A stretch of 64,000 nucleotides of DNA from contig JBNZDD010013726.1 in the NCBI GenBank assembly GCA_050575255.1, positions 7,325,156 through 7,389,155 on the forward strand, written 5' to 3'. Source of the stretch: Harriotta raleighana (Eukaryota). This document shows, one piece after another, positions 50,333 to 51,695 of the stretch. Position 1 is the first letter of the stretch. Every line of letters starts with the position of its first letter. The notes beneath the pieces were generated by a model. It made no database searches. It was not told where the DNA came from and saw only the letters and a program-made list of their open reading frames with translations. A program made the translations under genes and the position numbers.

Positions 50333-50968
50333 GAACGGACAGTTCTCCATCAGCAGCACCTCCAACCCTGCTTTGTGCAACTGGACCAAGAGATCTAATT
50401 TCCTATGTTTTCAGCCTCCAAGCTTTAAGGGTAGAAATTGGCTGGATTTAGGATTGTGACAAGTTCTATGTTTACCAAGGTTAGTCAAGGTTCGCGGGGT
50501 CATGACTGGGCTTTTTAATCAGTGATTCCACGTTAATGCGTTGACCCCAATGACCAGAGCCCTGCTGATTCTTCTCTCAGCATTTGTGAAACTTGGTTAG
50601 CTCCTTTAGCAGGTGTTATGAAAGACCAGGTGTTTCTTTGTATATTAAGAATAGTGCAATTGTAAAGCATAGCTATTTGAGGTGGTCGGTTTGCTAAATG
50701 TTGCATTATAAATATGGAAAAAGGTTACACTGTAGGTATGGGAAAACAATCAATTGTAAGAGTGCATTGACGTAAGCGTCTTCAATAGATGTTTCTCAAA
50801 CCTACCTATGACCATATCAAATTGCAGTATTGAATCGCGACAAAAACTGGCGATTTATTTTTCAGCTGTGTACATCTGATTATTTGCACCTAATTTACTT
50901 CATAAGACTATATATGTAATCAACATGTATTTCCATAAGTAACACTTCAACAAAATGGATGTTTCACT

Positions 50969-50974
50969 AATAAA
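50969..50974 (+). terminator. Polyadenylation signal for MYOF
   Basis: First + strand AATAAA seen after the stop (about 640 nt 3'UTR); upstream TGTA motifs, T-rich downstream. Confidence 0.7.
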
Positions 50975-51004
50975 GACATGAATCATAGATCACCAGTGAA
51001 AATA

Positions 51005-51010
51005 TTTATT
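51005..51010 (-). terminator. Polyadenylation signal for CYP26A1 (second candidate at 50854-50859)
   Basis: TTTATT on + equals AATAAA on -, about 690 nt after the stop; upstream TGTA on minus (51056, 51061) and GT/T-rich sequence downstream. Confidence 0.7.
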
Positions 51011-51695
51011 ATATTATATATAACATTGATGAACATTCACAATATAGGGAATTCATACATTACAAATCCTCTCAATGCATGACCTAGTGCTCAGAAGATG
51101 CTTTGCACCCAGCCTGTGCTTGTTAAATTTACAAAATAATTACAGTCCAAGTCTTATCATAAATTAACTGTCCTATTGCAAGCTAAAGTATTAAATTATT
51201 TTAAATCAAGAGATTCAAAAAAAACCCTAAAAGATTAATGATATAAAATAGCTGGTTATTTACAGATCATTAAAAAAAGATCTGTACAACAATTGGGAAT
51301 ATGTAATATGGACAATATTAAACAATATAGTCTGACAGGTTTCTTCATCACCTTCTTGTTTCCCACCATTGGCATGAAACTGATACAGAAAAAAGGTGCA
51401 AATATAAGGTCAATCTCAAAGGATCAGGAACCTTTCATAAAACCAATGCCAATCACAGCATCTTTACACTTAAAATACCTAACATTGGAGCCATCTACTT
51501 TGGACACGTGCTTTAGCGTAAATTATTTAATGAAATTGAAGCCAAAGCCAACCGATTGCTGAAGGAATCTTCGCTCACCCCTCACAAAACATTTACAATG
51601 CCTCATGTCGAACATTGCAAGAGTTTGAAAAGCGCCAATACAATGCCACTTAAGGCTATGTCCAGTTTACAGAGACTGCAGCTCTAGCTGGAAGA

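Follow-up and report, generated by a model that had tools for sequence, protein, structure and literature searches.

The convergent genes MYOF (+ strand) and CYP26A1 (- strand) of Harriotta raleighana probably produce messages that end within about ten bases of one another, judging from two poly(A) signals that face each other between their stop codons, which lie 1363 nt apart. We analysed these genes in a 64,000-nt stretch of DNA, here called the window. The explanation we favour, and consider rather likely, is an ordinary tail-to-tail, dual-use convergent poly(A) region without any dedicated coupling of the two genes. Such an arrangement is a member of a known, common class, a point absent from the sequence-only reading of this DNA that our analysis followed up.

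Gene identities and orientation

The terminal exons of the two genes face each other without a gene in between. Their coding parts are as follows.

50288..50332, + strand: MYOF terminal exon, coding part (AG acceptor 50286-50287; stop codon 50330-50332; tail match)
51696..52040, - strand: CYP26A1 terminal exon, coding part (Pfam P450, E 9e-23; stop codon 51696-51698; tblastn)

On the + strand, eleven blocks of Callorhinchus milii myoferlin were matched in order from 438 to 41813, and the transmembrane exon is 96% identical to that protein in the database match. The terminal exon shares 11 of 13 residues with the C-terminus of the C. milii RefSeq myoferlin, compared with 6 of 13 for the next-best placement in a + frame. 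We also considered dysferlin, which was the sole ferlin match in PDB, but rejected it, as identity in the near-full-length database matches was 96% for C. milii myoferlin and 65-67% for dysferlins. On the - strand, tblastn with C. milii CYP26A1 placed six of its seven exons at 88-95% identity, with the ATG at 55631, and the last exon is 94% identical to that of C. milii, 81-88% to those of sharks and 73-83% to bony-vertebrate CYP26A1. The gene names proposed in the sequence-only reading therefore hold, resting on the 96% and 94% C. milii matches, the tblastn exons and the tail residues. The same matches identify the source animal as a vertebrate close to the holocephalan C. milii. Adjacency of Myof and Cyp26A1 is itself an old synteny, which PMC10879103 traces from lamprey through jawed vertebrates.

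Residues 64-138 of CYP26A1 (exon 2) had no tblastn match within the window, and a gap of 282 N lies inside the gene at 54963-55244. Exon 2 is probably in this gap, so the gene only looks broken. A short-unit tandem repeat with repetitive open frames on both strands occupies 52933-53128, in a CYP26A1 intron. A 2017 study did not locate CYP26A1 in C. milii (PMC5247814); the gene is now in databases for that species, and the window (51696-55631) shows it in a relative.

The last MYOF intron is 8.5 kb long (41757-50287). Two UniRef models of C. milii myoferlin (P0121 and P0122) are without the terminal exon, and the RefSeq model (P0130) carries the true tail. P0121 extends into the last intron, and its first intron codons match those of the window. 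A SINE-like element with a shared AT-rich tail is present at 49850-50150, with copies ending near 2786, 20239, 22566, 29714, 42986, 46756 and 63437; one copy and a tail fragment stand directly ahead of the MYOF terminal exon.

Facing poly(A) signals between the stop codons

The features of the interval that bear on the 3' ends are listed here, with the signal or cut to which each is assigned by prediction.

50969-50974, + strand: AATAAA, poly(A) signal predicted for MYOF; TTTATT when read on the CYP26A1 strand
51005-51010, - strand: AATAAA, main poly(A) signal predicted for CYP26A1; its complement, TTTATT, lies in the MYOF downstream zone
50915..50929, + strand: two TGTA (CFIm-type) upstream of the MYOF signal, starting at 50915 and 50926, 50 and 39 nt before the hexamer
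51056..51064, - strand: two TGTA upstream of the CYP26A1 signal, at 51056 and 51061, 45 and 50 nt before the hexamer
50940..50980, - strand: GU/U-rich zone downstream of the CYP26A1 signal; the MYOF hexamer's complement falls within it
50854-50859, - strand: distal AATAAA in weak context (lacks TGTA at 30-70 nt upstream; U fraction of 0.20 upstream)
51526..51531, - strand: proximal ATTAAA, candidate alternative CYP26A1 end (rank 19 of 236)
51317..51322, + strand: ATTAAA in the CYP26A1 3' UTR, candidate MYOF read-through end (rank 49 of 236)
50984..50995, both strands: predicted shared cleavage zone of both transcripts (~21-nt rule applied to the hexamers)
50333..50995, + strand: predicted MYOF 3' UTR, ~660 nt (stop position, only + AATAAA, predicted end)
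50985..51695, - strand: predicted CYP26A1 3' UTR, ~710 nt (predicted end)

The AATAAA at 50969 is the only one on the + strand of the 1363-nt interval, while the - strand has two (51005 and 50854). Between the facing hexamers at 50969-50974 and 51005-51010 there are 30 nt. Direct reading confirmed every motif coordinate of the sequence-only reading, i.e., the hexamers, the 30-nt gap, the second TTTATT, the arms of an inverted repeat and the upstream TGTA. The sequence-only reading did not include the ATTAAA variants, which occur at 51190, 51269 and 51317 on the + strand and at 51526, 50514 and 50280 on the - strand.

The two signals differ in their downstream zones. For CYP26A1, the 40-nt downstream window has a U fraction of 0.42, seven GT/TG and three TTT. 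The MYOF downstream zone is AU-rich and GU-poor, with only four GT/TG and an A fraction of 0.45.

We considered whether the AT-rich stretch at 51003-51025 derives from a SINE and rejected this: blastn of 50151-51700 against the window gave SINE-tail matches only at 50193-50258, plus one 22-nt match elsewhere, and the element tails elsewhere in the window do not align with the stretch. Beyond the window, a search for RNA runs containing the stretch gave none, and a single sequencing run compared with 50260-52900 gave four pieces of 18-46 nt in three contigs, all of which run on unlike the stretch; a loose end among these resembled a SINE tail. A metagenome scan for orthologous 3' DNA returned 80 loci, 79 of which were other P450s at 31-47% identity. 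The remaining one, a teleost-like cyp26a1 contig, stops 369 nt past the stop codon and, over that length, has no hexamer and no match to the 3' region.

Chance expectation and context ranking

As a null model we used 5000 dinucleotide shuffles of the 1363-nt interval. A "facing pair" in this context is an AATAAA on each strand, pointing at one another across a gap of 15-45 nt. Such a pair arose in 215 of the 5000 shuffles (4.3%), or in 7.3% of the 2940 shuffles which had a hexamer on each strand. When at least one TGTA was also required 30-70 nt upstream of each hexamer, the count fell to 12 of 5000, and with two TGTA per side, as seen here, to one in 5000; these figures are optimistic, because the distance windows, like the context score below, were set after the sequence had been inspected. 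Counted over the entire window, facing pairs show no enrichment (one seen, 1.7 expected), and the same holds for gaps of 0-60 nt (three seen, 3.4 expected). Two TGTA at 30-70 nt upstream accompany 5 of the 120 AATAAA in the window, and both facing hexamers are among these five.

We also ranked all 236 A(A/T)TAAA in the window by an ad hoc context score. The - strand hexamer at 51005 came 2nd, followed by 51526 (-) at 19th, 50969 (+) at 31st, 51317 (+) at 49th and 50854 (-) at 100th. The CYP26A1 signal therefore appears strong. Among the four + strand A(A/T)TAAA between the stops, that of MYOF scores highest (the remaining two ATTAAA rank 176th and 233rd), yet its rank and its AU-rich downstream zone mark it as the weaker of the facing two.

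Taken together with the gene identities, this context supports well the view of the sequence-only reading that two poly(A) signals face each other at the MYOF and CYP26A1 ends. Its suggestion that the second - strand AATAAA, at 50854, would give about 150 nt of overlap did not find support: the context of that hexamer is weak, as its rank shows, and a second TTTATT is expected by chance (mean of 1.17 per shuffled interval).

Predicted cleavage and the preferred explanation

In standard poly(A) geometry (PMC5546720), the hexamer lies ~21 nt upstream of the cut and a U/GU-rich element lies 10-30 nt downstream. The hexamer-to-cut geometry of zebrafish is similar. Applied to the facing hexamers, the ~21-nt rule puts the predicted MYOF cut at ~50989-50995 and the predicted CYP26A1 cut at ~50990-50984, so the mature mRNAs would abut or overlap by ~0-12 nt, which is too short for a stable mRNA duplex.

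In the preferred explanation, each gene would have a complete canonical signal (two TGTA, AATAAA and a U-rich downstream zone), and the two signals would be interlocked head-on. Each pre-mRNA would be cut ~15-21 nt past its own hexamer, within ~50984-50995, and the complement of each gene's hexamer would lie in the partner's downstream U-rich window. This dual-use position fits the 10-30 nt downstream window, and on the CYP26A1 strand the bases concerned are predicted to be paired (see below). Each polymerase would run on into the last exon of the partner, presumably without harm, and then undergo ordinary termination; genes that lie close together are normally protected from interference by PCF11 (10.1101/491514). 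The arrangement is best taken as the outcome of a loss of intergenic DNA, in a compact genome, between convergent genes that have long been neighbours. It would persist because it does no harm, and not because it couples the genes.

Comparison with known convergent ends

Paired poly(A) sites on opposite strands are known from other animals. Jan et al. reportedly described convergent, bidirectional (palindromic) poly(A) site pairs in C. elegans in 2011. In zebrafish, 3P-seq mapped 797 such pairs with sites no more than 50 nt apart, 336 of them no more than 10 nt apart, according to Ulitsky et al. 2012 (PMC3460199), which ascribes them, as in C. elegans, to a palindromic arrangement of bidirectional elements. 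The MYOF-CYP26A1 pair resembles these in having convergent genes, facing signals, predicted cuts within ~10 nt of each other and little or no intergenic space. On sequence grounds it has both features of the bidirectional poly(A) class that can be read at that level, namely facing terminal exons and signals which place the predicted cuts within 50 nt. However, the zebrafish and C. elegans pairs were mapped by 3P-seq, whereas this one is predicted from sequence, comes from a holocephalan and involves a gene pair that our literature search did not find described.

Among partial gene overlaps in human, convergent UTR overlaps are the most frequent type; most are specific to one species, and 153 of 328 human pairs are kept in mouse (PMC2330155). 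Like those 3'-3' overlaps, the MYOF-CYP26A1 contact would be a tail-to-tail one confined to UTRs, between genes which are adjacent in other species. Unlike those overlaps, which are annotated, it is predicted.

As a further case, from a cartilaginous fish that evolves slowly, the pair would join a class whose mapped members in zebrafish number in the hundreds.

Alternative 3' ends

Among the alternatives, the one that survives best, although we still consider it unlikely, is that the two messages end well apart. CYP26A1 would then mostly use the ATTAAA at 51526-51531 and end near 51505, ~500 nt away from where MYOF ends, with the facing hexamers being partly a coincidence in AT-rich DNA. The 51526 signal does have a TGTA 62 nt upstream and, among the nine candidates between the stops, the downstream window richest in GT/TG; it ranks 19th of 236. 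A bare facing pair is also no great rarity in the shuffles, at the 4.3% and 7.3% given above. The signal at 51005, however, is a canonical hexamer with two TGTA and ranks 2nd, and the joint pattern of facing pair and paired TGTA was reproduced in only one of the 5000 shuffles.

Slightly more doubtful is a longer overlap of the two messages, which could come about in three ways: CYP26A1 could skip a stem and be cut at ~50960, a position that precedes the U/GU-rich run at 50956-50942; MYOF could leak to 51317 (~350 nt of overlap); or CYP26A1 could leak to 50854 (~155 nt). The stem in question is built on an inverted repeat.

50962..51001, no strand: inverted repeat with 7-bp arms, TTTCACT (50962-50968) and AGTGAAA (50995-51001); not above chance

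The sequence-only reading had remarked on this repeat as bracketing the MYOF signal. Its arms are where that reading placed them, but its significance falls away, since 1345 of 2000 shuffles of the 200 nt around it also held a perfect 7-bp inverted repeat. Inverted repeats bracket 8 of the 120 AATAAA in the window in a similar manner. In predicted folding of the CYP26A1 strand, G-U pairs lengthen the repeat at 50962-51001 to a stem of 11-12 bp with pair probabilities of 0.75-0.96. This stem (51000-50990 with 50963-50973) encloses the predicted cut site and pairs the TTTATT which we called dual-use, so that TTTATT would be lost as a CYP26A1 downstream element. On the MYOF strand the hexamer is predicted to be unpaired (0.94-0.99).

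Folding can reportedly lengthen the distance from hexamer to cut, a result credited to Wu and Bartel in 2017. RNA structure close to the hexamer is able to influence 3' processing (PMC6771402). We regard the CYP26A1-strand stem as a possible modifier. The longer-overlap reading also draws on the weaker downstream zone of MYOF. Against it, the stem is unexceptional for this DNA. The exact 40-nt repeat window has a z of -2.95 and a neighbouring 59-nt hairpin a z of -3.23, but these windows were chosen to fit the hairpins. An even folding scan of the CYP26A1 strand found 5 of 49 independent peaks at z <= -2.5, and the repeat stem is not one of them; a 101-nt window is no more stably folded than its shuffles (z -0.03). 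The inverted repeat was therefore rejected as a special element, being at chance level in shuffles and unexceptional in folding. The distal signals are poor too, with 50854 ranked 100th and the + strand ATTAAA other than 51317 ranked 176th and 233rd. Were any leak to occur, the context of the signals suggests that MYOF read-through toward 51317 would be at least as likely as a CYP26A1 shift to 50854.

In Rfam, nothing in 50200-52000 reached the gathering score, and the four matches were all far below it. A second repeat, a perfect 8-bp inverted repeat whose 10-nt loop holds the + strand ATTAAA at 51269, lies at 51261-51286 in the CYP26A1 3' UTR. Folding over it gave a z of -4.9 on the - strand and -5.3 on the + strand, and 51186-51225 gave -6.4 on the - strand (40 shuffles each).

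Retinoic acid and possible coupling

The sequence-only reading proposed that the two genes are coupled: retinoic acid would induce CYP26A1, its polymerases would cross the poly(A) signal and final exon of MYOF, and in cis the 3' processing or the output of MYOF would change. The premise regarding retinoic acid is supported by a conserved element upstream of CYP26A1.

55923..55939, + strand: CYP26A1 element R1, a DR5 retinoic-acid response element; it lies upstream of the ATG (55631) at a distance of 292 bp

This DR5 is identical to zebrafish R1 in both sequence and orientation (PMC5247814 Table 1), which argues for strong CYP26A1 inducibility. Run-on through the partner's signal also follows from the geometry, and convergent interference has precedents. 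At MFSD12/FZR1, which likewise have adjacent 3' ends, run-on enters the partner gene, and genes spaced this closely lack fail-safe termination (10.1101/491514). At Mest/MestXL-Copg2, as at MYOF-CYP26A1, a regulated gene is transcribed toward a convergent neighbour, and MestXL interferes with Copg2 (PMC13691114).

These precedents, however, depend either on losing a termination factor or on an isoform with a long extension. MFSD12/FZR1 interference appears upon PCF11 depletion (10.1101/491514), and the imprinted Mest/MestXL-Copg2 locus needs a long isoform that reaches into Copg2 (PMC13691114), whereas the main predicted overlap of MYOF and CYP26A1 is ~0-12 nt. An mRNA overlap of 155-350 nt would arise only if weak distal signals were used, and the candidates for such long read-through do score weakly (50854 and 51317, ranked 100th and 49th). 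We take the human MYOF-CYP26A1 gap to be >200 kb. The human locus has an intergenic stretch with the pseudogene XRCC6P1 (PMC5814451), so contact between the two genes is unneeded for either of them in mammals. Our literature search, mostly at record level, found no paper tying MYOF levels to CYP26A1 or retinoic acid, nor any on a MYOF-CYP26A1 3' contact. Weighing both sides, we consider coupling improbable; if true, it would link retinoid clearance to myoferlin levels, a link for which that search returned nothing.

Least probable of all, in our estimation, is a form of coupling in which the shared poly(A) region acts in cartilaginous fish as a retinoic-acid switch, where CYP26A1, transcribed in bursts, would block use of the weaker signal of MYOF and so cause MYOF to read through to 51317 or lower its output. 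Such a switch would tie a membrane-repair gene to retinoid feedback, by a cis link lost in mammals as the genes moved apart.

Under the preferred explanation, an ordinary convergent poly(A) region, the locus would still make a compact test piece, because the conserved hormone-response element allows an inducer to probe interference between abutting convergent ends under normal termination.

Two further observations concern the CYP26A1 upstream region. Between a TATA-like motif (near 55804-55810) and R1 there is a run of ~50 C (G on the gene strand) at 55829-55880, which may in part be an assembly artefact. Because of this run, R1 is 292 bp from the ATG, compared with 103-166 bp in other vertebrates. 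A second DR5-type site lies at 57368-57384 in the same orientation. It is ~1.7 kb upstream of the ATG, about as far as R2 is in zebrafish.
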